53,524 bases of DNA, taken from positions 1 through 53,524 of IMG/VR virus record IMGVR_UViG_3300027770_002684. One strand, written 5' to 3'. Shown here in pieces: positions 8,939-53,524 of this stretch (position 1 is the stretch's first letter; each line of letters starts with the position of its first letter). This DNA comes from a virus (taxonomy: Duplodnaviria > Caudoviricetes). The notes beneath the pieces were generated by a model. It had not been told where the DNA came from. It saw only the letters and a program-made list of their open reading frames with translations, and searched no databases. A program made the translations under genes and the position numbers.

Positions 8939-8971
8939 ATATTCATCATGTGAAGTGGTTGTAATGCGTTA

Positions 8972-9000
8972 ATTATACAGTGTTTTACCAATGGTGTCAA
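8972..9000 (-). promoter_or_regulatory. Early-type sigma70 promoter of ligase operon
   Basis: Minus strand GGTTGACA-ccattggtaaaacactg-TATAAT; same TGGTAAAAC spacer family as the 45-53 kb promoters. Confidence 0.85.
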
Positions 9001-9006
9001 CCTCGT

Positions 9007-20753: not shown

Positions 20754-20755
20754 CT

Positions 20756-22767: not shown

Positions 22768-22788
22768 ATACGCAACCATAAATATACG

Positions 22789-23313: not shown

Positions 23314-23328
23314 AATTACTCTAACCTA

Positions 23329-23886: not shown

Positions 23887-23972
23887 TATGAACGATATAA
23901 AAAAAGTATATCAAAATATAAAGATCAATCTTTCATAGATGATTCTTATACTACTAACAACTACTGCTACTT

Positions 23973-25406: not shown

Positions 25407-25433
25407 GATGTTTCTCTTAAAGAAGCATTTAAA

Positions 25434-26854: not shown

Positions 26855-26925
26855 AATATTTTACATTCCTAATGAACTATTTATGTTCATTAACCACTAA
26901 TATAAATATATAAAAGGAAACATTC

Positions 26926-27486: not shown

Positions 27487-27487
27487 T

Positions 27488-29312: not shown

Positions 29313-29318
29313 ATTATT

Positions 29319-30362
29319 TTAATCTAATTGTGTATTGTTATTGACTTCTAACATCCAGTCAATTTCTTCTTGGGTATAGATCATTATTTTGTTTGTTTTA
29401 ATATCATGGAGAAGATCTGCTGTGACGTTTTTAGTTATGTTTCTGCAATCATTATATAGACGTTTAGCAAAATCCAGTTTACCTGGTTGCATCATAATTT
29501 TGACACTTAACCAGTTGATTTTATCAGAGTTACCGGCATAAGCACTTGCCAGATTTTTTATAAATTTGTTGTACATCGTGGAATTTTCTAAATAAGTCAG
29601 ATGTGCTGAAAATCCAATGTCACTTACCTGTGCGAGTTCGTGATAATAGGTTTCGTTATGTGTTCCGTTGGTTGTTGTATGAACAATATGGAATAAATCA
29701 TTACGTAAATGTTTTACAAACTCCAGGTAATTAGGATTAAAAGTAGGTTCGCCACCTGTAAACACAAACTTCATTTTTTGTCCATTACTCCAGTATCTTG
29801 TTAAACTGTATAATCCATGCATTAAAGAGCCCAATGATTTATGAGACTCGTAGTTATTATGGCTCGATGGAGCACAATACCAACATTCGTAATTACATCG
29901 TCTACCAAGTTCCCATATCACTAATTTATAATGTTTCACCACTCCACAAAATATAGTATCATGATCGGTTATATTTTCTACCAGATTATGATTTGAATAG
30001 TCTATCTCCTTCATAGAATTTAACGTGACAATATCTGTTTGTTCTAAATTCTTCACTTTAGGAGTTTGCATATCAGATGCACATAGACAAGAATTCTTTT
30101 TACATTGAATCCAATCTCTCGGTCCTCCGTTGTCTGAAAAATAAGAAGCATATATACTACCGATAATACCGCCTTCTCGACAGGTTCCTCGATAAACTAA
30201 TCCATCATGCTGTATGTATAAAGATCTAAGCCCAACTGAACACCACCAATCTTTCCAATTATTAAGATGTAAGGAATGTAATTTATCTGCATCGTAAACT
30301 GCGATTTCTTTTTTATTTAAAAAAAGTATTTTTTGTTCATCTATTTTTGTTAAGTCGGCCAT
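29319..30362 (-). CDS. Radical SAM protein with N-terminal Cys-rich domain
   Basis: WWCSVG...YRGTC...C....CLC; CNYECWYC; FTGGEP; TTNG. Confidence 0.9.
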   Translation of the reverse strand: MADLTKIDEQKILFLNKKEIAVYDADKLHSLHLNNWKDWWCSVGLRSLYIQHDGLVYRGTCREGGIIGSIYASYFSDNGGPRDWIQCKKNSCLCASDMQTPKVKNLEQTDIVTLNSMKEIDYSNHNLVENITDHDTIFCGVVKHYKLVIWELGRRCNYECWYCAPSSHNNYESHKSLGSLMHGLYSLTRYWSNGQKMKFVFTGGEPTFNPNYLEFVKHLRNDLFHIVHTTTNGTHNETYYHELAQVSDIGFSAHLTYLENSTMYNKFIKNLASAYAGNSDKINWLSVKIMMQPGKLDFAKRLYNDCRNITKNVTADLLHDIKTNKIMIYTQEEIDWMLEVNNNTQLD

Positions 30363-33953: not shown

Positions 33954-35537
33954 TTATATTTTCCTATCCGATGTTGTATTCCATAGAGAGTTAAAGTCTT
34001 GCTCTTTAACGCACACACCTATTAAAAAACAAACCGGTTCACCAAAGAATCTTAAAAATTTTCCTAACCAATTTCCTTTTTCCAACACTCCCATCTTGTA
34101 AGCCAGTTCTTCTGCCCTGGCCATCATTAATGGATATATTATTTTTTCTGCTAATGGAGACCTACGCATAAGTCTTACGTAGGGAATAGCCCAGTATTGA
34201 TATCCTCTAACAGTTGCTGGTGAAAGATAGGTAAATGTATACTCCATGTCCGCTCTCCATACATCCTTAGGCATCATACCTTTACGATAAAAATAAGTGC
34301 AGATAACACGGCTGCTGTTGCCGCCGCCAGGCGAGCTTTGTTGAGTGGTGTTAACACTGGTTGTTCCAGCATCGCTACTACCTTCTGATCCCGGTGATGC
34401 ATCTGTTTTACTGAAGGATGTGTCTCCAGTTTGATTGTTAACGGAAATTGTATTTGTGGATCCATCACTGTAACTGAATGTAGTGACAGTATATGACGGT
34501 CGACCACCACCCCCTCCGCTTGAGGTTACTGTTACTGTGTAGTCTGGTGTTGCAGGAGGAGGTGGATTGTTTATTGTTATATAATTGTGAATGTAGGCCA
34601 CTATAGGAGTAGAAGGCAACTGTGTAGCATATATGGTCACAGTTGATGCATAATTTGATCCGGCAGATGCACTGCCACTTGGATTATAATTGATAATAAA
34701 TGTAGCCTGTGATCCTACAGGTATGTTAACCAAACTCTTGTTAGATGTAAATGTAATCTCATTGTTAGATACAGGGGTGCTACCTGGTTGATCACTCATC
34801 TGTACTGTTTGACCATCACCTAATACGGCTATAATTGATTGCGAATTGTTATAACCATTGTAATTGGCAGTGAACCCTATATCAAGATTATTGGTGCTAT
34901 TCATCGTCAAATAATTGGTAGATGTAAAGAACAACATTGGATTACTAACAACAACTGTGGATTGATTTGGTAATTTATTAACAGTTAGAGTTGTACCATT
35001 TATTGCTGTAATTACAGCATTATCGGCTAACTCATAACCATTTTGAATTATCTGCCAACCTATACCTAAATGGTCGGAATTAGCTACTGTTATTTTATCA
35101 GTGCTGGTAGAGAATGTAACAGTTCCTCCGATAACAGGAGTACCCGAATATGTACCACTCATGGTTAATATTGTTGGGGAAAGCACATTCACCACTGATC
35201 TACCAGTTAGTCCATTACCCGATGCGACCCAGCCGGATTGTATTCCTGTGGTATTATTAACTGTTAGCGTTACTCCGGTCATTGTGGTGTAGGTCGGAAG
35301 CCTATCACGTGTATCAGATAGGAAATCCTTTTCTAAATAATCACCATATAGATATCTTTTGTTGTATGTTTCTCTTGTATTGTTTCTGCTGTCCGACGTG
35401 TATCCTCCCCATCCGGAGTAATCGGCCACGTGGACTGTATTATTATTGTCTTCATAAACAATATAATTTATGTCAATATCGTGTGTACCCTTATTGGATA
35501 GGTTGAATACAATTGGTGTTGCTGCTGTGGTTGGCAT
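33954..35537 (-). CDS. Virion/tail protein with distinct C-terminal VICT domain
   Basis: Thr/Asn-rich beta repeats, Ser/Gly linker, then RVICT...GYQYWA...GEPVC. Confidence 0.78.
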   Translation of the reverse strand: MPTTAATPIVFNLSNKGTHDIDINYIVYEDNNNTVHVADYSGWGGYTSDSRNNTRETYNKRYLYGDYLEKDFLSDTRDRLPTYTTMTGVTLTVNNTTGIQSGWVASGNGLTGRSVVNVLSPTILTMSGTYSGTPVIGGTVTFSTSTDKITVANSDHLGIGWQIIQNGYELADNAVITAINGTTLTVNKLPNQSTVVVSNPMLFFTSTNYLTMNSTNNLDIGFTANYNGYNNSQSIIAVLGDGQTVQMSDQPGSTPVSNNEITFTSNKSLVNIPVGSQATFIINYNPSGSASAGSNYASTVTIYATQLPSTPIVAYIHNYITINNPPPPATPDYTVTVTSSGGGGGRPSYTVTTFSYSDGSTNTISVNNQTGDTSFSKTDASPGSEGSSDAGTTSVNTTQQSSPGGGNSSRVICTYFYRKGMMPKDVWRADMEYTFTYLSPATVRGYQYWAIPYVRLMRRSPLAEKIIYPLMMARAEELAYKMGVLEKGNWLGKFLRFFGEPVCFLIGVCVKEQDFNSLWNTTSDRKI

Positions 35538-42943: not shown

Positions 42944-43954
42944 TCATGGAGTATAATTGCCCGAACTATAGAAATAATGATACGTGTTTCCACCAATAAT
43001 GCTGACAGTACCTCCTATACCTTTTTGTACTATTCCTGAATAATAGATAAAGGCTACACCACTGCCGCCAGCGCCGGCAGTCCCACCGTGCCCTATTCCA
43101 CCACCACCGCCCCCTCGGTTAGCAGTACCCGAAGTAGGGTTTGAACTAAAAGATTCATTAGCACCATTTCCACCGCCTCCGGATCCACCGGTACCACCCG
43201 TTGTAGCACCAGAACCACCACCCCCTCCTGCATAGATAACTCCATCTGCTGCAAGACGCCCGGATCCACCCGCTCCTCCTCTTGAATTATTAATGTTGGG
43301 TGCATTGGGTGCAGTGGCGTTGCCTCCCGCTGAGCCAGCACCACCACCACCACCACCTATGCTGTATGTTGGTCCAGCACCACCACTATTACCCTGTCCC
43401 GCTACTCCTGTGCCGCCGTTATTGCCGCCTGGAGCATCTGCTGCACCACCCCCTCCACTGCCACCATTTCCAACGGCAAAAGAATTTTGAGGCCAAACAC
43501 CACCATGTGGACTACCGGCACCATGACCCCCACCTATGGCTGTGTTGCCATTGAATGTGGTATTGGAACCATTGGTAGAGCGTACACTTGTACCATAACC
43601 TCCACCTACTCCACCCCCTCCGATATTGACTGCATACGTAGAACCCACTGTTAAGGTGGCATTACCACTTAAAAAACCCCCTGCTCCACCTCCACCAGAG
43701 GGTTGTCCACCCCCACCCCCAGCAATTAATACAAAATTAACCACCCGGACAGCGGCTGCTCCATGAAAATTACCCAAACTCAACTGCCCACTACTGGGTA
43801 TGGCGGTGCTAACTGCTGAGGGAAATCCATTTGTGCCTGCTCCAACGTAACTATCTCCAGCATAATACTCATTTAAACTGATGGGATTACTGCCTCCAAA
43901 TTCAGTCTGCAAATTGGCGAATGATATGGCGTTGGGGGATACGGGTAAAGTCAT
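42944..43954 (-). CDS. Glycine-rich virion/tail protein
   Basis: EFGGSNPISLNEYY...SGQLSL.NFHG head; Gly-rich body. Confidence 0.8.
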   Translation of the reverse strand: MTLPVSPNAISFANLQTEFGGSNPISLNEYYAGDSYVGAGTNGFPSAVSTAIPSSGQLSLGNFHGAAAVRVVNFVLIAGGGGGQPSGGGGAGGFLSGNATLTVGSTYAVNIGGGGVGGGYGTSVRSTNGSNTTFNGNTAIGGGHGAGSPHGGVWPQNSFAVGNGGSGGGGAADAPGGNNGGTGVAGQGNSGGAGPTYSIGGGGGGAGSAGGNATAPNAPNINNSRGGAGGSGRLAADGVIYAGGGGGSGATTGGTGGSGGGGNGANESFSSNPTSGTANRGGGGGGIGHGGTAGAGGSGVAFIYYSGIVQKGIGGTVSIIGGNTYHYFYSSGNYTP

Positions 43955-43981
43955 AGTTTAGGTATTTACCTTAAATTACTC

Positions 43982-44010
43982 TTGACATTGACGGGTTTTT
44001 CCTGTATAAT
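43982..44010 (+). promoter_or_regulatory. Consensus sigma70 promoter
   Basis: TTGACA-17-TATAAT, followed by ACACAC leader. Confidence 0.88.
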
Positions 44011-44042
44011 TATACTCATACACACACACAGAAAGGTTAGTT

Positions 44043-44465
44043 ATGCCAGGAATAGCACTAGAAGGTAGCATTACCTCTTGGGAAAATCGCCCACAATGCC
44101 AAATAGCAGGATGTTGTAATCCTGCTATGTACAACTATCAATATGCTGATGGAGATTGGAAATGGCGAGTAAGACACGGTAAAATTATTTGTGGGGCCCA
44201 TCAGCGTAAAAGTTGGCATCCTACGCTTAAACATCGTAAAGATTACTGCGAAAATGTTTCTGGTTTTTTAGGGTTTAAATGTACTACTAACTTGGTCTGG
44301 AATGGTATGTTAGATGTAGATCATAAAAACGGCAATCCTGGTGATAATAGACCTGCTAATCTACAAACTCTGTGTAAGTGCTGTCATATGTATAAAACAC
44401 ATAAGAACAAAGACTACCTAACAGATGGGCGTAAGACTTTGGGATTTACTAATAGTTACAAGTAA
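44043..44465 (+). CDS. HNH endonuclease
   Basis: LDVDHKNGN..DN...NLQTLC.CCH..KT. Confidence 0.85.
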   Translation: MPGIALEGSITSWENRPQCQIAGCCNPAMYNYQYADGDWKWRVRHGKIICGAHQRKSWHPTLKHRKDYCENVSGFLGFKCTTNLVWNGMLDVDHKNGNPGDNRPANLQTLCKCCHMYKTHKNKDYLTDGRKTLGFTNSYK

Positions 44466-44550
44466 ATACCCCGCTGTAGCACTATACAGATATAGTCTTA
44501 CAGCGTATATACAAATACCCCGCTATACAGGCCACACCAAATACCCCGCT
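44464..44550. repeat. Three direct repeats AAATACCCCGCT
   Basis: Copies start at 44464, 44513, 44539. Confidence 0.8.
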
Positions 44551-45185
44551 ATAGCACCCTTGCCCAGAACCCATAATACACTACATCGAAGTCGATCCTA
44601 CGTAGTGAAAGGTTGAGACCAAAGAATATCCTGACTACAGTGTGATTTCCTTTGGTCGAATGGTAGACCATTTTACGATAGCCTCTCATCCCCACCGTGC
44701 TCCAATCTAAATCCACTATAGATCTAACAGAAATCTACGGCGAAAAAGGATCAATCTACGGTGGATTCGACGCATTTTGGAGCGTTTTTCCACCGTGAAT
44801 CCCAGATTTCTGACCCAAAACTGCCCCAAAATAGTATCACATTACTCAGTGTAGAGTAACATATTCTACTGTGTAATCACTATGCATGTTGTAGATCTAC
44901 TACAGTGTGAGTTGTCCATAGTTGGGATCTGTGTTATACTATGCGTATATACACCGAGACTTGTCTATGAGTAGTGTATATGTAAACCGTAAGCAGCAGG
45001 ATAGACATACAGATTTGATTAGGGGCCGGAAGCCTGGGCGATCGATTGGGTATGTTGAGTCTGATTGTAGATCTTCGTTACTGTTGCTGAACTCGCGACC
45101 AGCCCTTCCGGTGGTTGAGGACCCTCTTTGTAGATGAACAGGCGAGATGGGCGGCGATACTGGGAAACGCAGAGATCGCTGACTG

Positions 45186-45225
45186 AGATAACCCTATAGT
45201 TGAGTAAGCTATAGGGTTATCTTTT
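45186..45225 (+). terminator. 14-bp hairpin with short T run
   Basis: AGATAACCCTATAG-9 nt-CTATAGGGTTATCT-TTT. Confidence 0.6.
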
Positions 45226-45297
45226 GAGTAGATACAATCTATATTATGTTAACCGGGGTCGGAGTGCCGGCTGTGTGGCGGTTATACAACGGATTCA

Positions 45298-45336
45298 CTT
45301 TACATTGGCTTTACATTGGCTTTACATATCTTTACA
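45298..45336. repeat. Tandem CTTTACA(TTGG) x4
   Basis: Units at 45298, 45309, 45320, 45330. Confidence 0.85.
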
Positions 45337-45346
45337 AAGAAATGAG

Positions 45347-45375
45347 TTGACAAAATGGTAAAACCATTGTATAAT
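45347..45375 (+). promoter_or_regulatory. Repeated early promoter
   Basis: TTGACA-17-TATAAT; spacer AATGGT-AAA-ACCATT. Confidence 0.9.
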
Positions 45376-45402
45376 TGACACTTACACACACTGGAGCACA
45401 CT

Positions 45403-45645
45403 ATGCTGACAAACGAAAGCGAAATTATAAACAATGCTACTATTACACACGACTACGAAGCAGAAGCCATGCAGTCGTTTGAAGCCACGGGCGACGACAT
45501 GATGGACGAACTAACTGAGCGATTTGAGAGTGAGTTTACCAACTTTGATCTTGCAGATGATGTTGGGGGGCTGGTGCTCTACAGACGAGCAGGCGTTTTA
45601 GTAGCGTTCTACGACTACGAGCAGTTCCACGGCGCTGTATTGTAA
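45403..45645 (+). CDS. Acidic early protein
   Basis: GGAG SD; D/E-rich. Confidence 0.8.
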   Translation: MLTNESEIINNATITHDYEAEAMQSFEATGDDMMDELTERFESEFTNFDLADDVGGLVLYRRAGVLVAFYDYEQFHGAVL

Positions 45646-45682
45646 AGTGCCAGAGTGTTGTAGAAATACAGCACTCTTCAGG

Positions 45683-45711
45683 TTGACAAAGTGGTAAAAC
45701 CATTGTATAAT
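45683..45711 (+). promoter_or_regulatory. Repeated early promoter
   Basis: TTGACA-17-TATAAT; upstream hairpin GAGTGTTGTA-GAAA-TACAGCACTC. Confidence 0.9.
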
Positions 45712-45717
45712 ACACAC

Positions 45718-46068
45718 ATGAACAAAGAAACAGTCACCCGCAAGAAACGTGTAGATCGCAATCACATCATCTACGAACTCGTAGTCAATGGGTTGAACTA
45801 CATAGGTGTCACTGCTAAGACTGAGACTACTGTGCAGAAGTCAGTTCGTGTTCGTGCTAACAAGCATTTCTACCGTGCTAAGACTGAGAACAAAGACTGG
45901 GCCCTGTGCGTGGCTCTACGTGAGTTGTCAGACAAGAGCGAGATAGAGATACGCATACACGAGATCATCCGTGGCAAGGCTGCTGCACATCGGCGGGAAG
46001 TTGAGATCCGTCGTGCTATTAACCCTGCGCTGAATACGGACATTCGCGGCGACTTGACAGCGGGCTAA
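45718..46068 (+). CDS. GIY-YIG-like nuclease-domain protein, probably leaderless
   Basis: HIIYEL...NYIGVT...R...H...E...LN; ATG 6 nt after the -10 box with no SD. Confidence 0.65.
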   Translation: MNKETVTRKKRVDRNHIIYELVVNGLNYIGVTAKTETTVQKSVRVRANKHFYRAKTENKDWALCVALRELSDKSEIEIRIHEIIRGKAAAHRREVEIRRAINPALNTDIRGDLTAG

Positions 46069-46082
46069 GAACCTGCTATAAT
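46054..46082 (+). promoter_or_regulatory. Repeated early promoter
   Basis: TTGACA-17-TATAAT plus ACACACTTACACACTAAGGAGC. Confidence 0.9.
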
Positions 46083-46108
46083 ACACACTTACACACTAAG
46101 GAGCTACC

Positions 46109-46336
46109 ATGTTTGATTCGTTTACTCGTATACGCCCGGCCACTTGCCGCCTGATGGACATGATGGATGCAGGTGAGATCGATACCCGTATAGTAGCAGA
46201 GATGGCCCTGATGTGGCTGTCGGAGAGTTCCGTTGCCGAGATGATGCAGGCCAACGACATCTTGCAAGAAGAAGCGGCGGATGACGGCCAGCCCGATGAA
46301 GCACAAGAGTGGGAATCTTTTGATCCTGACTGCTGA
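46109..46336 (+). CDS. Acidic early protein
   Basis: AAGGAG SD; tail DGQPDEAQEWESFDPDC. Confidence 0.8.
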   Translation: MFDSFTRIRPATCRLMDMMDAGEIDTRIVAEMALMWLSESSVAEMMQANDILQEEAADDGQPDEAQEWESFDPDC

Positions 46337-46342
46337 AAACGG

Positions 46343-46371
46343 TTGACACATTGGTAAAACCATTGTATAAT
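46343..46371 (+). promoter_or_regulatory. Repeated early promoter
   Basis: Identical to 51883-51911. Confidence 0.9.
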
Positions 46372-46398
46372 TGACACTTACACACTAAGGAGCACGAC

Positions 46399-46638
46399 AT
46401 GCAAGTATTTCAACTAATCGAGCGTTTGATGGACTTGGACCCTAACGCCGAAGTCCACTTGAGTTATAACTATGGCGACCACTGGAGCACCCAAGTGGCC
46501 CCTACTGTGGACACGGTAGACGAGGGACTGGTGAAGTATAGCGACTATCACCGCATGGACACGTTGATGGATGAGGACGAGATGATCGAAGATGAAGGCG
46601 ACTTCGAAGGTACTCGCCGTGTGGTAGTCTTAGGTTGA
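46399..46638 (+). CDS. Acidic early protein
   Basis: SD; stop TGA lies inside the next TTGACA. Confidence 0.8.
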   Translation: MQVFQLIERLMDLDPNAEVHLSYNYGDHWSTQVAPTVDTVDEGLVKYSDYHRMDTLMDEDEMIEDEGDFEGTRRVVVLG

Positions 46639-46663
46639 CAAGACTGGTAAGACCAGTTATAAT
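46635..46663 (+). promoter_or_regulatory. Repeated early promoter
   Basis: Spacer ACTGGT-AAG-ACCAGT. Confidence 0.9.
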
Positions 46664-46690
46664 ATACACTTACACACAAAGGAGCTAGAG

Positions 46691-46978
46691 ATGCTTTCAA
46701 TCGCAGATATCAACACCGCTATCATCAGCCAAACATGGACCAACGATCAACTGACATCTATGATTGATGCTGTCAAGTTCGCTCGTTCGCGTTTAGCGAA
46801 ACAGACCATGCGTCAACTGCACATCGGTGATCCTGTGGTGTTCAATGCCAAGGACGGACGTGCTGTCAACGGCATGGTGACTAAGATTGCTATCAAGTTC
46901 GTCACAGTGAAGACCAACATTGGCTCTTGGCGAGTGCCTGCTAGCATGTTGCGTATCGTAGAACGCGAACTGGCATAA
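46691..46978 (+). CDS. Early protein, SH3/KOW-like C-terminus
   Basis: IGDPVVF...G.VTKI..K.V.V.....WRVP. Confidence 0.75.
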   Translation: MLSIADINTAIISQTWTNDQLTSMIDAVKFARSRLAKQTMRQLHIGDPVVFNAKDGRAVNGMVTKIAIKFVTVKTNIGSWRVPASMLRIVERELA

Positions 46979-46983
46979 AGAGG

Positions 46984-47012
46984 TTGACACGGGAGCGATC
47001 CCGTGTTATAAT
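46984..47012 (+). promoter_or_regulatory. Repeated early promoter
   Basis: Hairpin ACACGGGA-GCGA-TCCCGTGT. Confidence 0.9.
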
Positions 47013-47038
47013 ACACGCTTACACACACTGGAGCACCT

Positions 47039-47416
47039 ATGCAATATTACGATGAACTTGCGCAGTACGAGCGCGAAGGCTTTTCAATCATTGTGGACAA
47101 GACCTATGAAGACATGCATCCCCGGGACACGTTCGACGACAGCTGCCACAACATTGACGAGATCTGTGAGAAGATTGACAACGGGACCTACGAATGGTTT
47201 ATGTTGCGAGTACGTGTACTCGTCGAAGGGCTCGAACTATCACGCGAGCATGTGGGCGGATGCCTATACTATGACGTCCGCGAAGTCCTTACTGACGGGA
47301 CTGCCGAAGACCTCATTGACAGTGCGATGACTGATGCCAAGAAGCAGGTCTATCGACTAAGCCGGGTGTTCGCTGGCCTAAGCGAGCAGGTGGATCGGGA
47401 GGGTGCCTGTGCTTGA
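47039..47416 (+). CDS. Hypothetical early protein
   Basis: GGAG SD; acidic. Confidence 0.8.
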   Translation: MQYYDELAQYEREGFSIIVDKTYEDMHPRDTFDDSCHNIDEICEKIDNGTYEWFMLRVRVLVEGLELSREHVGGCLYYDVREVLTDGTAEDLIDSAMTDAKKQVYRLSRVFAGLSEQVDREGACA

Positions 47417-47633
47417 TAACGTTTTAAAATGGAGTGGCATGGCATTGGTCATCGCCGGTGCCCTATGCACTAGTTTGCGCATTGACCCTTTGAACATCTT
47501 GTTGCTCAATGCGGGTGCTCTTGTCTACATGATATGGGCATTGCGAATTCAAGAAATGAACTTGGTGATCGTCAATGCAGTGCTTTTGGCTATCTATGCA
47601 GTAGGATTAATGCAAGTGCCAAAACCGTTGTAG
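47403..47633 (+). CDS. Small membrane protein (about 3 TM)
   Basis: Three hydrophobic stretches; start may be GTG 47409. Confidence 0.7.
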   Translation: MPVLDNVLKWSGMALVIAGALCTSLRIDPLNILLLNAGALVYMIWALRIQEMNLVIVNAVLLAIYAVGLMQVPKPL

Positions 47634-47652
47634 AAATACAACAACAAAGAGG

Positions 47653-47681
47653 TTGACATATTGGTAAAACCGTTGTATAAT
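47653..47681 (+). promoter_or_regulatory. Repeated early promoter
   Basis: TTGACA-17-TATAAT; upstream GTTGTA-GAAA-TACAAC. Confidence 0.9.
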
Positions 47682-47707
47682 TAACGCTTACACACTAAGG
47701 AGCACAG

Positions 47708-47992
47708 ATGTTCACTACAGACAACCAAACCGCACTCAAAGACGAACTGAACCTCATGTTCAAAGAGCAGGGTGCCGCGTTCACCGCAGGCTACTCCAAC
47801 ATGATGGTGCAGGAGATGCTGATGTTCTTGCCCAAACGCAAGCAGAAAGAGTTCATCCAGCAGGTTGCTGCCTTCAACGGTCGCCAACTAGTCACTGTGA
47901 AGAACTGCTTGACTGGTCAGGAAGTTGAGATCCGCCGTGAAGATGTGGGCACCTGCAACGATCCGAGTCGCGAACTGTTCCATACAATGTGA
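47708..47992 (+). CDS. Hypothetical early protein
   Basis: SD; C-terminal VKNCLTG.EVEI.......DPS.E.FH.M. Confidence 0.8.
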   Translation: MFTTDNQTALKDELNLMFKEQGAAFTAGYSNMMVQEMLMFLPKRKQKEFIQQVAAFNGRQLVTVKNCLTGQEVEIRREDVGTCNDPSRELFHTM

Positions 47993-47994
47993 GG

Positions 47995-48023
47995 TTGACA
48001 GAGGAGCAATCCTCTGTTATAAT
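47995..48023 (+). promoter_or_regulatory. Repeated early promoter, no SD/ORF downstream
   Basis: Hairpin ACAGAGGA-GCAA-TCCTCTGT. Confidence 0.9.
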
Positions 48024-48029
48024 ACACGC

Positions 48030-48143
48030 ATAGACAGATTTGTTTAGTAAGTGCCTCTAGACTGAAGTCGGTCGAGATCTATGAATGCTCAGGCAGATGT
48101 ATAGGAGTGAAGGCAAGCAGATAAGAGCACTTACTAAACAAAG
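48030..48143 (+). ncRNA. Candidate small structured RNA
   Basis: Own promoter; perfect 16-bp closing stem 48039-48054/48127-48142; no SD-led ORF. Confidence 0.6.
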
Positions 48144-48146
48144 TGG

Positions 48147-48175
48147 TTGACAAGTTGGTAGAAGAGTGTTATAAT
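48147..48175 (+). promoter_or_regulatory. Repeated early promoter
   Basis: TTGACA-17-TATAAT-ACACGCATAG. Confidence 0.9.
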
Positions 48176-48181
48176 ACACGC

Positions 48182-48322
48182 ATAGGGAAACAAGTTTAGG
48201 GTTACTCCAGAACGCAACGCAGGACGCATTAAATAGACCTTGAAGGTCAGCCCGCAAGGGATGCATGTCAAAACGCTGAGCAGGGAGGATTAAATCAGTC
48301 TGTGACTGAGCCCATCTTTTTT
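48182..48322 (+). ncRNA. Candidate structured RNA or 5' leader
   Basis: Hairpins GACCT-TGA-AGGTC, CCC-GCAA-GGG, TCAGTC-TGT-GACTGA, then T6. Confidence 0.5.
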
Positions 48323-48333
48323 AGGAGCATAGT

Positions 48334-48492
48334 ATGGGACATTGGGAATTTGGAGAGTTCCGCATTGGACGCTTATTCCACTGCAACGGTAACGACTACA
48401 TCAAACAATCAACACGCACTGCACGGTTGCTCAGCAACGGACGCATCTTCTACTTCGGTAAGAACGAAGTCATTCACGCTATCGCATACTAA
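48334..48492 (+). CDS. Small early protein (52 aa), not in ORF track
   Basis: AGGAG SD; MGHWEFGEFRIGRLFHCNGNDYIK. Confidence 0.75.
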   Translation: MGHWEFGEFRIGRLFHCNGNDYIKQSTRTARLLSNGRIFYFGKNEVIHAIAY

Positions 48493-48502
48493 GGAGCACA
48501 CA

Positions 48503-48664
48503 ATGAAAGAGCAACTACTGGCCTTGGCCTACGAGCAGGAAGATGATGTGTTTGGCTCCAGTGAGCGTGATGAGTTCGATTGTTTGATCGCCCTGATCGA
48601 AGATGGCACCATCAACACCTTTGAAGAACTTGCCCGTTACGGAGTTGAACGATCCGGTGAATAA
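48503..48664 (+). CDS. Small acidic protein (53 aa)
   Basis: AAGGAG SD before MKEQLL. Confidence 0.75.
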   Translation: MKEQLLALAYEQEDDVFGSSERDEFDCLIALIEDGTINTFEELARYGVERSGE

Positions 48665-48673
48665 CCCTGCAGG

Positions 48674-48702
48674 TTGACAGGTCATTCAAACGGTGCTATA
48701 AT
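48674..48702 (+). promoter_or_regulatory. Repeated early promoter
   Basis: TTGACA-17-TATAAT plus conserved leader. Confidence 0.9.
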
Positions 48703-48729
48703 ACACACATACACACTAAGGAGCACAAG

Positions 48730-48831
48730 ATGAAGTTCACAGCAGAACAACTGGCCGCATACATGAAGGGCATGACCATTGCACAGGCAGCAGCCATGTG
48801 GCAAGTGTTGGTTGACAAAGGCATTGTTTGA
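48730..48831 (+). CDS. 33-aa peptide, not in ORF track
   Basis: Own promoter and SD; MKFTAEQLAAYMKGMTIAQAAAMWQVLVDKGIV. Confidence 0.7.
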   Translation: MKFTAEQLAAYMKGMTIAQAAAMWQVLVDKGIV

Positions 48832-48840
48832 AGTTATAAT
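48812..48840 (+). promoter_or_regulatory. Repeated early promoter
   Basis: TTGACA-17-TATAAT plus conserved leader. Confidence 0.9.
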
Positions 48841-48866
48841 ACACACATACACACTAAGGAGCACTC

Positions 48867-49109
48867 ATGTTTACACTGGCAAATGTTCAAAAAGTATATA
48901 CCGGCCGTTTGGGATGTATGTGCGGATGCAGGGGACGATACAGTTATGCCCAGGGCTGTGATGAAGGCTACGACGATCAAGTTAATGAGCGGAGTGTCAA
49001 ACTCATCTTCAACAAGGTAATGAACCACCCTGATCGCAAAATGGACGGCAATGATATTGCTTATGTTATGACTGACACACGCAATCTCGTTGTGTATTTT
49101 AAAGATTGA
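48867..49109 (+). CDS. Hypothetical early protein
   Basis: SD; YTGR.GCMCGCRG.Y motif. Confidence 0.8.
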   Translation: MFTLANVQKVYTGRLGCMCGCRGRYSYAQGCDEGYDDQVNERSVKLIFNKVMNHPDRKMDGNDIAYVMTDTRNLVVYFKD

Positions 49110-49111
49110 GG

Positions 49112-49140
49112 TTGACAGGTCTGGTAAAACCTGTTACAAT
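49112..49140 (+). promoter_or_regulatory. Repeated early promoter
   Basis: TTGACA-17-TACAAT; ACAGGT...ACCTGT. Confidence 0.88.
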
Positions 49141-49169
49141 ATACGCTTACACACTAAGGAGCACAGCAA

Positions 49170-49646
49170 ATGGGAACACGCAGTCGAATTGGAGTCATGC
49201 ACGGAGACAAGTGCAAAAGCATCTACTGTCATTGGGATGGCTATCTGTCGCACAATGGCAAGATCCTGCAAGAGCACTACGATAGTGCCAAGGCCAATCA
49301 TCTCGTGGCAATGGGCGACATGAGCAGCCTGGATAACCATATCGGTGAGAAGCATCCCTTCAGCGGCTACTCGGGCGAAGAAGATAAAGCCTTGTATGAA
49401 CAAGCCCGCGAGAAGCATTGGTCTACATTCTACGCTCGCGATCGCGGTGAGACAGGTGTAGAGTTCAAAGTAGCACAAGACTTCGCAGAGTTCCTGGAGC
49501 AATGCGATAGCTGCGGTGCTGAATACTACTACATCATGAAGGACGGTGTTTGGTATTGTGGTACCACATACGAGAACACACACCCCTTGAGCAAGACTTT
49601 AACGGTGTTGACTGAAGCATTGGCAAACGAAAAGGAAACTGTATGA
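49170..49646 (+). CDS. Phage early protein
   Basis: MGTRSRIG...SIYCHWDGY....G..L..HY; EYYY. Confidence 0.85.
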   Translation: MGTRSRIGVMHGDKCKSIYCHWDGYLSHNGKILQEHYDSAKANHLVAMGDMSSLDNHIGEKHPFSGYSGEEDKALYEQAREKHWSTFYARDRGETGVEFKVAQDFAEFLEQCDSCGAEYYYIMKDGVWYCGTTYENTHPLSKTLTVLTEALANEKETV

Positions 49647-49816
49647 GCAAGATGAGTGATATGGCTTACGACATTGAGCAACTCTACATTGAAGGCTATA
49701 GTGCCCGAACGATCGCGATCATGTTGGAGTGCCCGATCGATCTGGTCTACAATTGGATCGATGGCAACGGTGTGGCAGATATCCCACAAGGGGAGGATGA
49801 ACATTCGGCAAATTAA
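49643..49816 (+). CDS. Small HTH-like protein (57 aa), not in ORF track
   Basis: ATGA overlap; LYIEGYSARTIAIMLECPIDLVYNWI. Confidence 0.7.
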   Translation: MSKMSDMAYDIEQLYIEGYSARTIAIMLECPIDLVYNWIDGNGVADIPQGEDEHSAN

Positions 49817-49828
49817 TCCAGAAAACGG

Positions 49829-49857
49829 TTGACAACGAACCTAATCCGTTGTATAAT
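49829..49857 (+). promoter_or_regulatory. Repeated early promoter
   Basis: TTGACA-17-TATAAT; ACAACG...CGTTGT. Confidence 0.88.
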
Positions 49858-49914
49858 TAAGGTATGGAAAGTAATTATGCAATCCATATTTCACACACAC
49901 AGAAGAGGTATTTT

Positions 49915-50331
49915 ATGACTGACAAGACTTTTAAATTCGCAGGTGTTTCTACTCGTAATGGTGTTTGCAAGGCTCGCTTTGCCAATGACCAAATGCGTGT
50001 CAAGGTGCTGGCCAAGACCGGCAGCAAGGACATCGATCTGATTGAACTCAAAGAGCCCATGACCAAAGCGGCTGCTATCGCGTTCCTGATCTTCATCAAC
50101 TTCGACAACGGCAATGCCACTGTGCGGGCTGCTCTTGAGGAAGGCTTGGAGAAGCGTACCGTAGTTGCCCGGGCACCTAAAGCTGTTAAAGCCAAAGCGG
50201 CTCCTAAGGCCAAGGCTGTGAAGTCCAAGCCCACTATGGACGCTATCAAGGCCAAGGTTGCGGCTGCTACCAAGCCTAAGAAGGCAGACATCGTTGCCCA
50301 GATGGCAGACATGGAAGAAGCACCCTACTGA
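49915..50331 (+). CDS. Protein with Lys/Ala/Pro-rich histone-like tail
   Basis: GAGG SD before MTDKTF; APKAVKAKAAPKAKAVKSKP. Confidence 0.8.
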   Translation: MTDKTFKFAGVSTRNGVCKARFANDQMRVKVLAKTGSKDIDLIELKEPMTKAAAIAFLIFINFDNGNATVRAALEEGLEKRTVVARAPKAVKAKAAPKAKAVKSKPTMDAIKAKVAAATKPKKADIVAQMADMEEAPY

Positions 50332-50406
50332 TAGCGGGGTATTGGGGCCCAGTGTGCCCCATTTAGTAAAATACATTGGGTAGTGTGTTTTACCAAAGGA
50401 AACAAT

Positions 50407-50652
50407 ATGAGTAAACTGGCATATCTGGGTAGACCGTGGACTGTGTTCGAAGCAAAGAACAAGCAGCATCGAGCATGGTTCGCAGAGTTCCAACACAAGC
50501 GGACATGGAGCAATTGTCCTGTGAGATTTGTAGTAGCAGATGATCAAGGTGATCTGGTTACTATGATCCAGCAACGCTTGATTGAATACTACACAACACG
50601 AGAATTCGGTAAAGTTGAAGACCAAAAGTACTTGACCTTGGTCAAGCGATAG
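50407..50652 (+). CDS. Hypothetical protein
   Basis: AAGGA SD before MSKLAY; RPW.VF...N..HR...W..CPVRF. Confidence 0.78.
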   Translation: MSKLAYLGRPWTVFEAKNKQHRAWFAEFQHKRTWSNCPVRFVVADDQGDLVTMIQQRLIEYYTTREFGKVEDQKYLTLVKR

Positions 50653-50700
50653 TGTAATATTAGTGTAACTGTGTGAACAGTATAACATTAAGGAAAACAA

Positions 50701-50976
50701 ATGACAACATATAATATCAACCAAGGGACCAAGACCCACAAGCTATTCACCGCATTGAAGTCGGGTGAGGCAGTCAGTGCCAGCCAAGCAGAGAAGCGTT
50801 TCGGTATCAAGAACATCAGTGCCGAAGTTAGCCGTATCCGTGCAGCAGGTTTCGCAGTGTACGGTAACACCCGTGTCGCTGGCAACCATGTTGAAGTGAA
50901 AGAATATGTAATCGGACAGCCATCACGCAAGTTGATCGCAGCCGGTTACAAGGCAATGGCATTGGGCCTTGTCTAA
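50701..50976 (+). CDS. Winged-HTH DNA-binding protein
   Basis: L..ALKSGE.VSA.QA..RFGI.N.SA.VS.IR..GF.VY. Confidence 0.75.
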   Translation: MTTYNINQGTKTHKLFTALKSGEAVSASQAEKRFGIKNISAEVSRIRAAGFAVYGNTRVAGNHVEVKEYVIGQPSRKLIAAGYKAMALGLV

Positions 50977-51118
50977 AGAACGCTCCAAAGTCTGAAGTCG
51001 CGTATCAGACACAAGTCCCAGGGGGTAGTGTCCCTGGGCAAACCCCCGAACCCCGTATGCCGCAAAGTATATGGGGTTCATCTATTGTGGTCAACCTCTC
51101 TCCGAAAGACCCGCCAGG

Positions 51119-51147
51119 TTGACAGGGTATTCAGATCCTGCTATAAT
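51119..51147 (+). promoter_or_regulatory. Repeated early promoter
   Basis: CAGGGT...ATCCTG spacer. Confidence 0.9.
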
Positions 51148-51171
51148 ACACACATAGACAGCAAGGAGCAC

Positions 51172-51372
51172 ATGATGATCAAAGTAGCAAAGATGACAGA
51201 CGGCAAGGTAGTCGAGGTCGTTCGGGTTGCGGACACTGTAGGCTTCAGCACCGAGCGGGGGTGGGTCATGGTCTGCTTCGACTTTGAGAAGATCAGTCGC
51301 AAGCGTGAGCAATTCAAGTGGGTGCCGGCCACTACTCGATTTGAGTGGGTTAGAGAATACACTTTCGGTTGA
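51172..51372 (+). CDS. Hypothetical early protein
   Basis: SD before MMIKVAK; stop inside next TTGACA. Confidence 0.78.
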   Translation: MMIKVAKMTDGKVVEVVRVADTVGFSTERGWVMVCFDFEKISRKREQFKWVPATTRFEWVREYTFG

Positions 51373-51397
51373 CAGGGTCTTAGGATCCTGCTATAAT
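51369..51397 (+). promoter_or_regulatory. Repeated early promoter
   Basis: CAGGGTC-TTAG-GATCCTG. Confidence 0.9.
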
Positions 51398-51424
51398 ACA
51401 CACATGAACACAAAGGAGCACAAA

Positions 51425-51634
51425 ATGACAGCGATTACAGTAGCAGAGATGATAGAGGCATTGAGCCAGTTGCCAGGGGACGCAGAGTTGGTAGTGACCG
51501 AAAGCGGTTATTACTCTTATGGCGAGTTTGCCAACATCATGTTGCCAGAAGCCTACACCGTAGAAGGTGTGGACAATGATGCAGATGTGGGCAAGGTAGT
51601 CTACCGCATTGGTCACTCACACCAATCTTACTAA
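51425..51634 (+). CDS. Hypothetical early protein
   Basis: SD; TVAEMIEALSQLP.DAE resembles the N-terminus of 46399-46638. Confidence 0.78.
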   Translation: MTAITVAEMIEALSQLPGDAELVVTESGYYSYGEFANIMLPEAYTVEGVDNDADVGKVVYRIGHSHQSY

Positions 51635-51641
51635 GGAGCAT

Positions 51642-51875
51642 ATGATGCAAGCAGAAGCAACCCGGTCCGCATATTACGACACACGCCACGGTGGACCATT
51701 CGATCGTGGCAGTGCCGACTTCTACTATGGTCGTTCGTTCAATCCTCACTACTTCGTCGGTGACACCTACTCCACTCCTAAGATCGAGTTGGCCCAGATG
51801 ACTGCGGCAGAGATCGCAGGTTACACCGCAGGCTACCGCTATGGTGAAGAACTGGGCGATCGTAAAGAGTGGTAG
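51642..51875 (+). CDS. Hypothetical early protein
   Basis: SD; RHGGPFDRGSAD.YYGR. Confidence 0.8.
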   Translation: MMQAEATRSAYYDTRHGGPFDRGSADFYYGRSFNPHYFVGDTYSTPKIELAQMTAAEIAGYTAGYRYGEELGDRKEW

Positions 51876-51882
51876 AAAGAGG

Positions 51883-51911
51883 TTGACACATTGGTAAAAC
51901 CATTGTATAAT
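51883..51911 (+). promoter_or_regulatory. Repeated early promoter
   Basis: Identical to 46343-46371. Confidence 0.9.
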
Positions 51912-51938
51912 TAACACTTACACACACTGGAGCACACG

Positions 51939-52205
51939 ATGAAAGCACTACAGACATACATCGACAACAAGAACCGTTGGAACGCTATCTTCAAAGGTGA
52001 GCAGTTCGAAATCCAAAGTGCCAAGGGTCGACAGCGAGTCGCTGACAGCCTGGACGCAGACCTGAGCCCAGAGAACTTGACCTGTGATGGCGAACTGTCG
52101 CGTCAAGAGATACGGATGCGTTACGATTTCCTGCAACAGGCGGCTGTGCAGTTGACAGCATTGGATCCGCAGGTTAAGATGTATGAGTTCTACACTGGAG
52201 AATAA
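51939..52205 (+). CDS. Hypothetical early protein
   Basis: SD; LSPENLTCDGEL motif. Confidence 0.82.
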   Translation: MKALQTYIDNKNRWNAIFKGEQFEIQSAKGRQRVADSLDADLSPENLTCDGELSRQEIRMRYDFLQQAAVQLTALDPQVKMYEFYTGE

Positions 52206-52206
52206 G

Positions 52207-52356
52207 ATGGACAGAGACGAACTGCTGGCAAAGGTCTATGAACAGATGGAACGCGATATCCGCAACGAAGATTTAACAGCCATTGAAGAACTGTTGAGCA
52301 CAGTGTCTGATGCGGCTTTACTTGGTTTTTTACCCGAAGGAGATTTCAATGCCTAA
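52207..52356 (+). CDS. Small acidic protein (49 aa), not in ORF track
   Basis: GGAG SD; MDRDELLAKVYEQMERD. Confidence 0.72.
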   Translation: MDRDELLAKVYEQMERDIRNEDLTAIEELLSTVSDAALLGFLPEGDFNA

Positions 52357-52870
52357 TTGGTGCAATAACACGCTGAACATCCGCCACGAAGATCCTGCTA
52401 TGATTGAGCGGGCCCGTAAGGCTTTTACCGACGGCAGGTTCCTGGAGGAGTTCATTCCGTTCCCTAATGGTGAGTGGGATTGGAACTTCTGTGTAGCCAA
52501 CTGGGGTACCAAGTGGGATATCGGTGGTGGGGATGGTCACACCGTAGAGCAAGATGCCAATGGTGTCGTGTTCAACTTCGACAGTGCCTGGGCACCACCC
52601 CTTGCTGCCTATGAGCGGTTGATGGGCATGGGCTTTGAGATCCTGGCCTACTACTTTGAACCCGGCATGGCGTTCGCAGGCAAGTGGGAAGATGGTTGCG
52701 ATGACTACTACGAATATGGTGGCATGACCAGTGAGCAGATCGCTGATGAGTTGCCCGATGACCTGGATGAGACCTTTGACATCAGCGGCCAGGTTGCTGA
52801 GTGGGAAGCCGAGGACGAGGAGAACATTGAGATCGACCTTGATGGAGGTGCGAGTTCCACTAACGAATAA
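52349..52870 (+). CDS. DUF1281/YubB-like protein
   Basis: MPNWC.N, NWGTKWD, FDSAWAPP, Y.EPGM.FAG. Confidence 0.8.
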   Translation: MPNWCNNTLNIRHEDPAMIERARKAFTDGRFLEEFIPFPNGEWDWNFCVANWGTKWDIGGGDGHTVEQDANGVVFNFDSAWAPPLAAYERLMGMGFEILAYYFEPGMAFAGKWEDGCDDYYEYGGMTSEQIADELPDDLDETFDISGQVAEWEAEDEENIEIDLDGGASSTNE

Positions 52871-52901
52871 CCCTACACACTGTAGGGTCTTTACAGCACA
52901 C

Positions 52902-52930
52902 TTGACAGGTGTGCTGTTCTGCGTTATAAT
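52902..52930 (+). promoter_or_regulatory. Repeated early promoter with -35 box at hairpin tip
   Basis: ACAGCACACTT-GAC-AGGTGTGCTGT; TATAAT at 17-nt spacing. Confidence 0.88.
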
Positions 52931-52955
52931 ACACACATAAACACTAAGGAACACG

Positions 52956-53123
52956 ATGAAGAAAATATGTGCTAACGGAATGACACGCTGGGCAATGATG
53001 TACCAAATTAAGTTGCAATGCGACACTAACAGTGCTTGCTACAAAATGACAGACGAAGAACTTGTTGCAACTTATAATGCGATTTTTAATATTGCACAAA
53101 AAGACTTGACAACGGCAGACTGA
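52956..53123 (+). CDS. Small early protein (55 aa), not in ORF track
   Basis: AAGGA SD; MKKICANGMTRWAMM. Confidence 0.7.
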   Translation: MKKICANGMTRWAMMYQIKLQCDTNSACYKMTDEELVATYNAIFNIAQKDLTTAD

Positions 53124-53134
53124 ACTGCTATAAT
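53106..53134 (+). promoter_or_regulatory. Repeated early promoter
   Basis: TTGACA-17-TATAAT plus leader. Confidence 0.9.
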
Positions 53135-53163
53135 ACACACTTAAACACTAAACGGAGCACAAC

Positions 53164-53523
53164 ATGCAAACAGCACTGACAACACAATTTGCTAAAGTTA
53201 GCGACAAACTGACACTGGAACACACTGGTGTTGAAGACGACGACACACTGCACACGGAATACAAGTGCAACGTAGAAGTGCAACTGGCAGGTGACAGCAT
53301 ATGGGACTGCGAACTGCAAGCGGTTACTATTACGGGCGTACACATTAGCGAAACGTTTGACGAAGACGACGGGGACGTTTACGCACACATTGGGGTGACT
53401 TACGAAGTAGACGGCGAAGACGGTGCTGAAGTAGAAGGCAGCTGGCGGCTGTACACAGACAACGGCTTTAGCGATGCTGTGAGCGAGTTGCTGGGAACAG
53501 ATGTAGACTTTACAGAGCAAGGT
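53164..53523 (+). CDS. Acidic early protein, 3'-truncated
   Basis: GGAG SD; MQTALTTQ...LYTDNGF...VDFTEQG, open to the window end. Confidence 0.8.
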   Translation, partial: MQTALTTQFAKVSDKLTLEHTGVEDDDTLHTEYKCNVEVQLAGDSIWDCELQAVTITGVHISETFDEDDGDVYAHIGVTYEVDGEDGAEVEGSWRLYTDNGFSDAVSELLGTDVDFTEQG

Positions 53524-53524
53524 A

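Follow-up and report, generated by a model that had tools for sequence, protein, structure and literature searches.

Repeated promoter/stem-loop elements known as PeSLs were described in the T4-like phages RB49 and phi1. As set out in passages of Arbiol et al. (2010; PMC2839356), the upstream gene has its stop codon in an AT-rich stretch, followed by a sigma-70 consensus promoter, a stem-loop located mostly in the interval that separates the -35 box from the -10 box or over the -10 box, and a Shine–Dalgarno (SD) site with an ATG. According to the same passages, promoter activity is very strong, one stem-loop acts as a terminator, RB49 and phi1 differ by indels at PeSLs, and mini-circles occur whose crossovers lie between the -10 box and the ATG. 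Here we describe an array of comparable elements in the complete IMG/VR virus record IMGVR_UViG_3300027770_002684, a linear sequence of 53,524 nt with a CheckV completeness of 15% (hereafter the window). We consider it likely that these elements are PeSL-type promoter–hairpin–leader modules that also serve as portable patches of homology for the exchange of gene cassettes.

Sections of Comeau et al. (2014; PMC4122927) extend PeSLs and PmSLs to PST/T4 and nt-1/KVP40, where promoter/stem-loop motifs cluster in hyperplastic regions beside indels, replacements and displaced open reading frames (ORFs). In full-text searches, discussion of PeSLs was found for T4-type phages only; a cyanophage paper considered them and set them aside, and a jumbo-phage review does no more than cite PMC4122927.

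A dense array of promoter and leader elements

We found 20 matches to TTGACA-N17-TAYAAT in the window against an expectation of 0.14, and none of 100 dinucleotide shuffles contained more than one. Eighteen copies lie on the + strand at 45347–53134, exactly the number that an earlier note on this DNA had counted in 7.8 kb; the other two are found at 43982 (+) and 8972 (-). The array is real and far beyond chance occurrence. Allowing one mismatch raises the number of sites only to 22 (1.1 expected), and since just two sites are gained in the entire window, the copies are either perfect or absent, with essentially none decayed. The promoter consensus is matched at 12 of 12 positions in 18 of the 19 + strand copies and at 11 of 12 in P49112 (elements are named as in Table 1). 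In nine of the 19, a TG precedes the -10 box.

The similarity extends beyond the promoter, as the repeat families span from about 2 nt before the -35 box through the start codon. The leader is C/A-rich, with the sequence ACACAC-(T/A)-TACACAC-TAAGGAGCAC or a close variant, and the distance from the -10 box to the start codon is 24–29 nt in 14 of the 19 + strand copies. An SD site and a start codon follow 16 of these copies. For these the earlier description of a promoter followed by leader, SD site and ATG holds, while it fails for the leaderless P45683 and for P47995 and P48147, which are followed by long untranslated stretches. Each element heads one to three short genes of 33–173 aa, again as described before.

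On the upstream side, the last coding position falls anywhere from 38 nt ahead of the start of the -35 box to 19 nt past it in 14 of the 19 copies. For several of them the upstream stop codon lies in the spacer or is the TGA within TTGACA itself (46636–46638 and 51370–51372). The AT content of the 25 nt upstream of the elements ranges from 36 to 76% (mean ~56%, against 52% array-wide), and no clear AT-rich tract is observed.

Individual copies share segments with different partners. Positions 46341–46372 and 51881–51912 are identical over 32 nt, and P51883 is a mosaic, its spacer matching that of P46343 at 17 of 17 positions and its leader that of P45347 at 23 of 24; both features had been recognized in the earlier note and hold on direct comparison. 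Two copies of the leader alone (CATACTAAGGAGCAC...ATG), with no promoter, are located at 48485–48502 and 51627–51644, before genes 48503–48664 and 51645–51875.

A stem-loop in the promoter spacer

An inverted repeat in the spacer was overlooked in the first reading of the sequence, which took the elements for promoter and leader alone. We folded the segment ACA + 17-nt spacer + TA and compared each copy with 200 spacer shuffles. In 14 of the 20 copies the spacer contains a stem-loop of -4.3 to -13.1 kcal/mol, and at most 2.5% of the shuffles fold as stably. The composition of the spacer is position-specific, with a G-rich 5' side, a central A tract and C/T on the 3' side, and columns were therefore permuted among elements as a composition-preserving control. 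The mean minimum free energy (MFE) in the window, -5.46 kcal/mol, was reached in 0 of 300 permutations (-2.07 ± 0.43 kcal/mol). The same control applied to 278 distinct elements of relatives gave -2.87 against -1.52 ± 0.09 kcal/mol.

Stem sequences vary from copy to copy while pairing is kept: ACACGGGA/TCCCGTGT, ACAGAGGA/TCCTCTGT, ACTGGT/ACCAGT, CAGGGTC/GATCCTG and TGGT/ACCA. Furthermore, the promoter after gene 47708 (genes are named by their first coordinate) carries GAGGA/TCCTC in the window and GGGGA/TCCCC in the related locus L126, a compensatory pair of changes. In P52902, a 9-bp stem encloses the -35 box (CAGCACAC-TTGACA-GGTGTGCTG). It is because of the spacer stem-loop that the elements are PeSL-like rather than plain promoters.

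This anatomy suggests how a unit of ~55–60 bp might work; what the hairpin does, that the promoters fire early and which enzyme recombines the elements are inferred. The unmodified host RNA polymerase would recognize a perfect sigma-70 promoter, often with a TG before the -10 box, as soon as infection has begun. Genes run into the next promoter, which leaves the spacer alone to hold any 3'-end structure of the transcript upstream. The stem-loop in the spacer (around the -35 box in one copy) would form the 3' end of the transcript of the preceding cassette, where it most likely attenuates read-through or stabilizes the 3' end, so that cassettes would be expressed separately. The unstructured, C/A-rich leader of 24–29 nt, with AAGGAG and a start codon, would in turn provide uniform and strong translation starts. 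Recombination between elements, within one genome or between co-infecting relatives, could delete, insert, swap or move cassettes with their expression intact, probably through a phage RecA/UvsX-like system and not an integrase.

Cassette order differs among relatives

Searching viral contigs for the promoter together with the leader gave at least 117 loci, and a scan with the winged-helix protein encoded at 50701–50976 found relatives on 208 viral contigs, some of 331–364 kb. Among 80 loci fetched round the winged-helix gene, 28 carry 8–23 exact copies of the promoter and the others 0–6. Over all 80 loci, 488 exact copies lie on the gene strand and one on the opposite strand. The repeated element was not found in L141, a distant relative by its winged-helix gene that belongs to the low-count loci. 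With 28 copy-rich loci among the 80 and L141 lacking the repeated element, the arrays are specific to a subclade.

A comparison of cassette order in relatives, proposed earlier as a check, shows that the order is not fixed. Five refetched relatives contain the same arrays with the cassettes in different orders, as located by tblastn of the window cassette proteins (rows for gene 48503–48664 were left out). Four relatives retain the unit 49170–49643, promoter, 49915–50407–50701. The block 51939-(52207)-52349 follows gene 51645 in the window and lies upstream of homologues of 48867 or 49170 in all five refetched relatives; homologues of 51645 and 51939 are never adjacent in the seven loci that hold both. 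Genes 46399, 46109, 47039 and 48334 likewise switch neighbours between phages. Over 115 loci, adjacency is kept in 41 of 57 cases at junctions that have no promoter in the window, against 16 of 48 at junctions with one. This count does not include the pair 52956|53164, and seven loci duplicating refetched contigs were removed.

Breakpoints within elements

Several breakpoints could be placed to the nucleotide. The window and L126 are homologous across gene 47708 and the following promoter up to TATAATAC and diverge thereafter, the window continuing into a non-coding cassette and L126 into a homologue of gene 51939. A reciprocal swap of the non-coding cassette in L126 was considered and dropped, as only the ATAGACAG leader type, and not the RNA, is common to both.

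The RNA of this cassette, ncRNA1, has a counterpart in G002-type phages (L026/L127/L215) with 98% identity over 113 nt; the proteins of these phages share just 44–78% identity with those of the window. Identity with the L127 copy begins after the -10 box and stops at the next -35 box, and the flanking spacers are unrelated. Two contigs of sequencing run X3 agree with the window as far as 48485 and rejoin it at 48833; the 32 differing letters in between carry a different -35 box and spacer. This amounts to an indel of 347 nt relative to the window, with its right joint at the border of spacer and -10 box of P48812 (48833). Comparisons with sequencing runs were made on assembled contigs, with cover or depth figures for part of them. 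Other X3 joints lead backwards in the window, for example from 47702 to 46691 at depth 38; mini-circles would give such joints, and other cassette orders in related strains explain them equally well.

The clearest chimera is found in the pair L198/L200, whose sequences are 92–95% identical. In L198, two elements flank a 225-nt cassette with a 57-aa ORF. In L200, a single chimeric element combines the -35 box and spacer of the first L198 element with the leader of the second, and the crossover lies in a shared block of 19 nt, TATAATACACACATGGACA. A second indel in the pair is flanked by the repeat TAAGGAAACAArATGAC, and a third event swaps only the -35 box and spacer. The crossover that formed the L200 element falls in the longest identical block of the element and thus fits homologous recombination on short patches, as proposed in passages of Arbiol et al. 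(PMC2839356).

When the window array was compared with the fetched loci at a nucleotide identity of at least 88%, 39 of the 42 matches were elements, extending from about -2 to +51/+58 relative to the start of the -35 box; the remaining three were the ncRNA1 cassette (one) and short coding stretches (two). Since the elements are nearly the only DNA with this level of identity among relatives, they would act as portable homology patches.

Tyrosine and serine recombinases (PF00589, PF00239) were not found in the window and four relatives, two of them at least 98% complete, while control genomes were matched, in line with the integrase-free system that had been proposed. RecA (PF00154) is present in three of these five records, G001, G006 and G007, which include both near-complete relatives.

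Taken together, the comparisons support the view that the elements serve as preferred, non-exclusive joints of an integrase-free cassette exchange, as far as can be read from sequence. The earlier proposal of reshuffling by recombination between elements stands for the chimeric element and for several breakpoints inside elements, and does not extend to other breaks that fall outside them. A fixed order, with breakpoints unrelated to the elements and no junction sequences, which the earlier note had set against its own proposal, is not what the relatives display.

Alternative explanations

Several observations weigh against the elements being hairpin-bearing joints of exchange. The hairpin is absent or weak in 5 of the 20 copies, with the -35-enclosing stem of P52902 counted as present, and, of 277 distinct elements in relatives, just 72 pass the shuffle test at 5%. 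No spacer hairpin was called as a terminator by a terminator scan, because the TATAAT tail is too poor in T. Stems are more stable in the sense than in the antisense orientation in 10 v 3 cases in the window and 70 v 47 in relatives (p ~0.1), a bias too slight to assign the hairpin a function at the RNA level. The adjacency counts are phylogenetically non-independent, and selection for co-expression predicts an identical trend. All relatives are metagenome assemblies, in which repeats of 20–32 nt could create false joins; against this, contigs from different samples are 100% identical over 11–20 kb. An exact-match scan of viral contigs for the window junction 51849–51889 returned none, the window's own record possibly being excluded. 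Finally, three of the eight L198/L200 events (4, 7 and 8) and the break between L176 and L187 lie outside elements.

These outside breaks also favour a rival explanation, namely that the elements are merely optimized expression signals, pairing an early promoter of maximal strength with an ideal ribosome-binding leader and kept alike by selection, and that shuffling reflects general or illegitimate recombination followed by selection for intact transcription units, with no preferred sites. The junction 49643|49915, adjacent in 7 of 13 loci despite its promoter, agrees with this, and with elements in most intergenic gaps, a break that falls between genes is likely to hit one. Selection on expression signals accounts less well for the chimeric element of L200 with its crossover within the shared 19-nt block, for an ncRNA1 tract of 98% identity bounded exactly by the -10 box and the next -35 box, for elements being nearly the sole DNA at least 88% identical among relatives, and for spacer and leader halves with discordant nearest neighbours in the window. 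We regard this explanation as unlikely.

[quoted passage not shown] Spacers of the TGGTAAAACCA type recur in the window and in relatives, and the winged-helix protein (PF14090) is conserved on 208 contigs. The stems, however, are diverse yet paired (GAGGA/TCCTC, CGGGA/TCCCG, ACTGGT/ACCAGT, CAGGGT/ATCCTG), and 7 of their 83 pairs in the window are G-T, which points to a conserved structure rather than to one binding site and makes the operator explanation very improbable.

Equally improbable, in our view, is an integron-like exchanger without an integrase, in which the leaderless GIY-YIG-like nuclease of gene 45718–46068 would cut folded elements and hairpin-bounded cassettes, including ncRNA1, would pass between co-infecting jumbo phages. 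T4 endonuclease II is a small GIY-YIG enzyme that degrades host DNA. Least probable of all are hairpins acting as attC-like, structure-specific recombination signals at which the GIY-YIG-like protein or the HNH protein 44043–44465 excises and inserts cassettes: the hairpins are indeed conserved in pairing and not in sequence, the observed crossovers cluster immediately 3' of the hairpin, and the GIY-YIG-like gene is found in 34 of 80 loci, leaderless in 19 of 22 homologues and at the array head in refetched relatives, but many elements have no hairpin, the window and four relatives yielded no integrase or resolvase, the crossovers sit where plain homologous recombination would put them, in the longest identical block, and the GIY-YIG assignment is weak (no Pfam match, Foldseek E 0.09), with T4 endonuclease II being an equally good model for the protein.

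The host phage and its relatives

A completeness of 15% for 53,524 nt corresponds to a genome of ~350 kb, and the window is a fragment of an uncultured freshwater myovirus of about this size. The sequencing runs that contain the stretch are labelled as freshwater, lake or aquatic metagenomes. RNA contigs of run X24 match the array, although carry-over of DNA is possible. Megablast of the array against cultured phages gave no match.

The DNA ligase of the window is 82% identical to that of G001 and 52–68% identical to those of G003, G006, G007 and G008 (63–64% for G007 and G008). Both the 353-kb contig G007 (98% complete) and G008 have a gene for a Gp23-family capsid protein (PF07068, 320 bits), for which the best cultured matches, at 68–73%, come from Sinorhizobium phage Phosso, Vibrio phage 2.275.O and Pseudomonas phage PA5oct (Arenbergviridae). 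By capsid sequence, these relatives are nearest to PA5oct-type jumbo phages and not to T4/Straboviridae; the window itself has no capsid gene, and the affinity is that of G007 and G008. Exact-consensus promoters number 0, 0 and 8 in Phosso, 2.275.O and PA5oct, respectively, and are dispersed. A tail-fibre-like ORF at 33954–35537 gave nothing usable for classification.

Cassette genes and neighbouring sequence

The coordinates of the elements and associated features are collected in Table 1. The array is probably cut at the contig end after P53106.

Table 1. Elements of the array and associated features in the window, in order of position.
Feature	Position (strand)	Spacer, leader or structure	Gene headed or context
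Solitary same-type element	8939..9002 (-)	TGGTAAAAC spacer, no stable hairpin	Before ATP-dependent DNA ligase gene 7625-8938
P43982	43980..44042 (+)	Spacer hairpin -5.5 kcal/mol; 32-nt CA-rich leader	HNH endonuclease gene 44043-44465
P45347	45345..45402 (+)	TGGTAAAACCA-type spacer hairpin; ACACACTGGAGCAC leader	45403-45645 (80 aa)
P45683	45681..45717 (+)	Spacer hairpin	ATG of 45718-46068 sits 6 nt past -10
GIY-YIG-like 116-aa protein gene, leaderless	45718..46068 (+)		Stop codon within P46054 spacer loop
P46054	46052..46108 (+)	Hairpin -7.7 kcal/mol	46109-46336 (75 aa)
P46343	46341..46398 (+)	32 nt shared with P51883	46399-46638 (79 aa), stop TGA in -35 of P46635
P46635	46633..46690 (+)	Hairpin ACTGGT-AAG-ACCAGT, -7.8 kcal/mol	46691-46978 (95 aa)
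P46984	46982..47038 (+)	8-bp hairpin ACACGGGA-GCGA-TCCCGTGT, -13.1 kcal/mol	47039-47416, 47409-47633
P47653	47651..47707 (+)	Weak spacer hairpin, -2.5 kcal/mol	47708-47992 (94 aa)
P47995	47993..48029 (+)	8-bp hairpin ACAGAGGA-GCAA-TCCTCTGT, -11.8 kcal/mol	310 nt to next start codon
ncRNA1, non-coding cassette	48030..48146 (+)	Long imperfect hairpin RNA	Driven by P47995
P48147	48145..48333 (+)	No hairpin; 158-nt untranslated leader	48334-48492, 48503-48664
P48674	48672..48729 (+)	No significant hairpin	33-aa ORF 48730-48831
P48812	48810..48866 (+)	No hairpin; -35 and spacer inside ORF 48730-48831	48867-49109
P49112	49110..49169 (+)	-10 TACAAT; hairpin -6.2 kcal/mol	49170-49646 (phrog_1987), 49643-49816
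P49829	49827..49914 (+)	Hairpin -5.1 kcal/mol; atypical 57-nt leader	Conserved unit 49915-50331, 50407-50652, 50701-50976
Two strong hairpins	51017..51079 (+)	51048-51079 is the only + strand terminator-like site; 51017-51038 called on - strand only	Past gene 50701-50976
P51119	51117..51171 (+)	Hairpin -6.6 kcal/mol	51172-51372, stop TGA in -35 of P51369
P51369	51367..51424 (+)	Hairpin -9.3 kcal/mol	51425-51634, 51645-51875
P51883	51881..51938 (+)	Mosaic	51939-52205, 52207-52356, 52349-52870
Hairpin and P52902	52870..52955 (+)	CCCTACA...TGTAGGG then TCTTT, past gene 52349-52870	P52902 heads 52956-53123
P53106	53104..53163 (+)	Hairpin -5.7 kcal/mol	53164 onward, running off contig end

The 29-mer of P51369 recurs unchanged in L126, where it forms the promoter preceding the homologous gene.

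Pfam searches with 20 cassette proteins left 18 without a match; one match is a curated winged-helix family (PF14090, E 1.2e-6, protein 50701–50976) and one is a sub-threshold HTH match (protein 49643–49816). A relaxed rerun on four cassette proteins added nothing usable, and two cassette proteins belong to PHROG families of unknown function. The description of the cassette genes as anti-host in the earlier note is neither supported nor refuted by the sequence data. The protein 49915–50331, with no Pfam match, has a lysine/alanine-rich tail (AKAAPKAKAVKSKP...) that by eye recalls histone-H1-like DNA-binding tails, and its gene comes first in the three-gene unit that is the best conserved of the array.

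Gene 45718–46068 starts 6 nt past the -10 box, which makes its mRNA leaderless, and this arrangement is found in 19 of 22 distinct homologues. The AlphaFold model of its product has a pLDDT of 83, and the top Foldseek hit is the catalytic domain of the GIY-YIG enzyme I-TevI (probability 0.97, TM score 0.60–0.67, E 0.09). With no Pfam match, the modelled structure points weakly to a GIY-YIG-like fold. Homologues occur in 34 of the 80 winged-helix loci, and in the refetched relatives the gene occupies the array head. In contig G005 there are two copies, oppositely oriented.

The ncRNA1 transcript (~115 nt, no ORF) has a predicted MFE of -36.2 kcal/mol (z -3.9; none of 200 shuffles as stable) and a 16-bp terminal stem. 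A search of 43500–53524 against Rfam at permissive thresholds found no family, ncRNA1 included, and ARAGORN found no transfer RNA. The 158-nt stretch after P48147 (48182–48333) has no structure signal (z +0.65) and no homologue in any fetched locus; in relatives, the homologue of gene 48334–48492 has an ordinary 26-nt leader.

The HNH gene is separated from the first array element by ~880 nt (44466–45346) with no convincing ORF. This stretch contains three copies of AAATACCCCGCT(A/G)TA at 44466–44560 and four CTTTACA repeats at 45300–45335, and parts of it are 69–90% identical in several relatives. The region may serve as an origin, in packaging or in regulation.

Elsewhere in the window, positions 10000–30000 form a block of 29–35% GC, with flanks of 38–49%, and contain many genes of ~200 aa on both strands. 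Three radical-SAM proteins are encoded at 21062–22072, 23973–25406 and 28056–29312, the last with a SPASM domain. An ORF of at least 1985 aa on the - strand (2–5956) runs off the contig start and has no PHROG match.

Comparison with known systems

The PeSL design, known from the literature in cultured T4-like phages only, is thus present in a widespread clade of uncultured freshwater jumbo phages. No described array is as dense or as exact, and this one includes non-coding and leaderless cassettes; natural populations provide both chimeric elements and a cassette exchanged between diverged phages. No new principle is revealed; a known design appears in a lineage where it was previously undescribed, which suggests that promoter–hairpin–leader modules are a general means for large lytic phages to swap early genes while keeping their expression. 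Early accessory genes of metagenomic jumbo phages could also be located by the elements, which make a simple sequence signature.

Phages T5 and T7 likewise use the host RNA polymerase, at a few near-consensus sigma-70 early promoters at a genome end. They share with the window the close-to-consensus host promoters for early genes, and differ from it in that these promoters are not ~19 repeated promoter–hairpin–leader modules and are not known to take part in cassette exchange. Integron arrays consist of promoterless cassettes served by a single Pc promoter and exchanged by the tyrosine recombinase IntI at attC hairpin sites. The resemblance lies in small, mostly unknown genes separated by short imperfect hairpin sites, and in cassettes that are gained, lost and reordered. 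In contrast to integrons, each window cassette has its own promoter, and the recombinase families PF00589 and PF00239 were not found in the window and four relatives.

The parallel with PeSLs drawn in the earlier note is closer than either, as promoter, stem-loop, SD/ATG and breakpoints located in elements all match the anatomy published in the parts of PMC2839356 and PMC4122927 cited here. Degraded 'half' elements reported for PST/T4 and nt-1/KVP40 in the latter resemble the leader-only copies at 48485 and 51627. As portrayed in the same sections, those phages have the stem-loop immediately ahead of the promoter, and their hexamers are degenerate (TTTACW/TAYWAT; TTGYVH/TAWWAT), whereas the stem-loop of the window is inside the spacer and its hexamers are exact.

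For RB49, terminator activity and mini-circles are demonstrated in the passages cited above, whereas the elements of the window are known from their sequence alone. We found nine exact matches to the promoter pattern in the 164 kb of RB49, four of them with GGGG...CCCC spacer stems, compared with 18 in 7.8 kb here. The window lacks the clear AT-rich upstream tract of the PeSLs; its stems are varied with A-rich loops and not of the G4/C4 kind, its leader is much more uniform, and some of its elements drive a non-coding RNA or a leaderless gene. Nevertheless, to the extent covered by these passages, the two systems share a near-perfect sigma-70 promoter with a 17-nt spacer, a stem-loop that lies most often in that spacer, the upstream stop codon on the 5' side and the SD site with ATG on the 3' side, a dense distribution among small ORFans, and breakpoints within the elements. 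The RB49 sequence TTGACAGGGGAGGATAACTCCCCTACAAT and the window sequence TTGACAGAGGAGCAATCCTCTGTTATAAT are of the same design.

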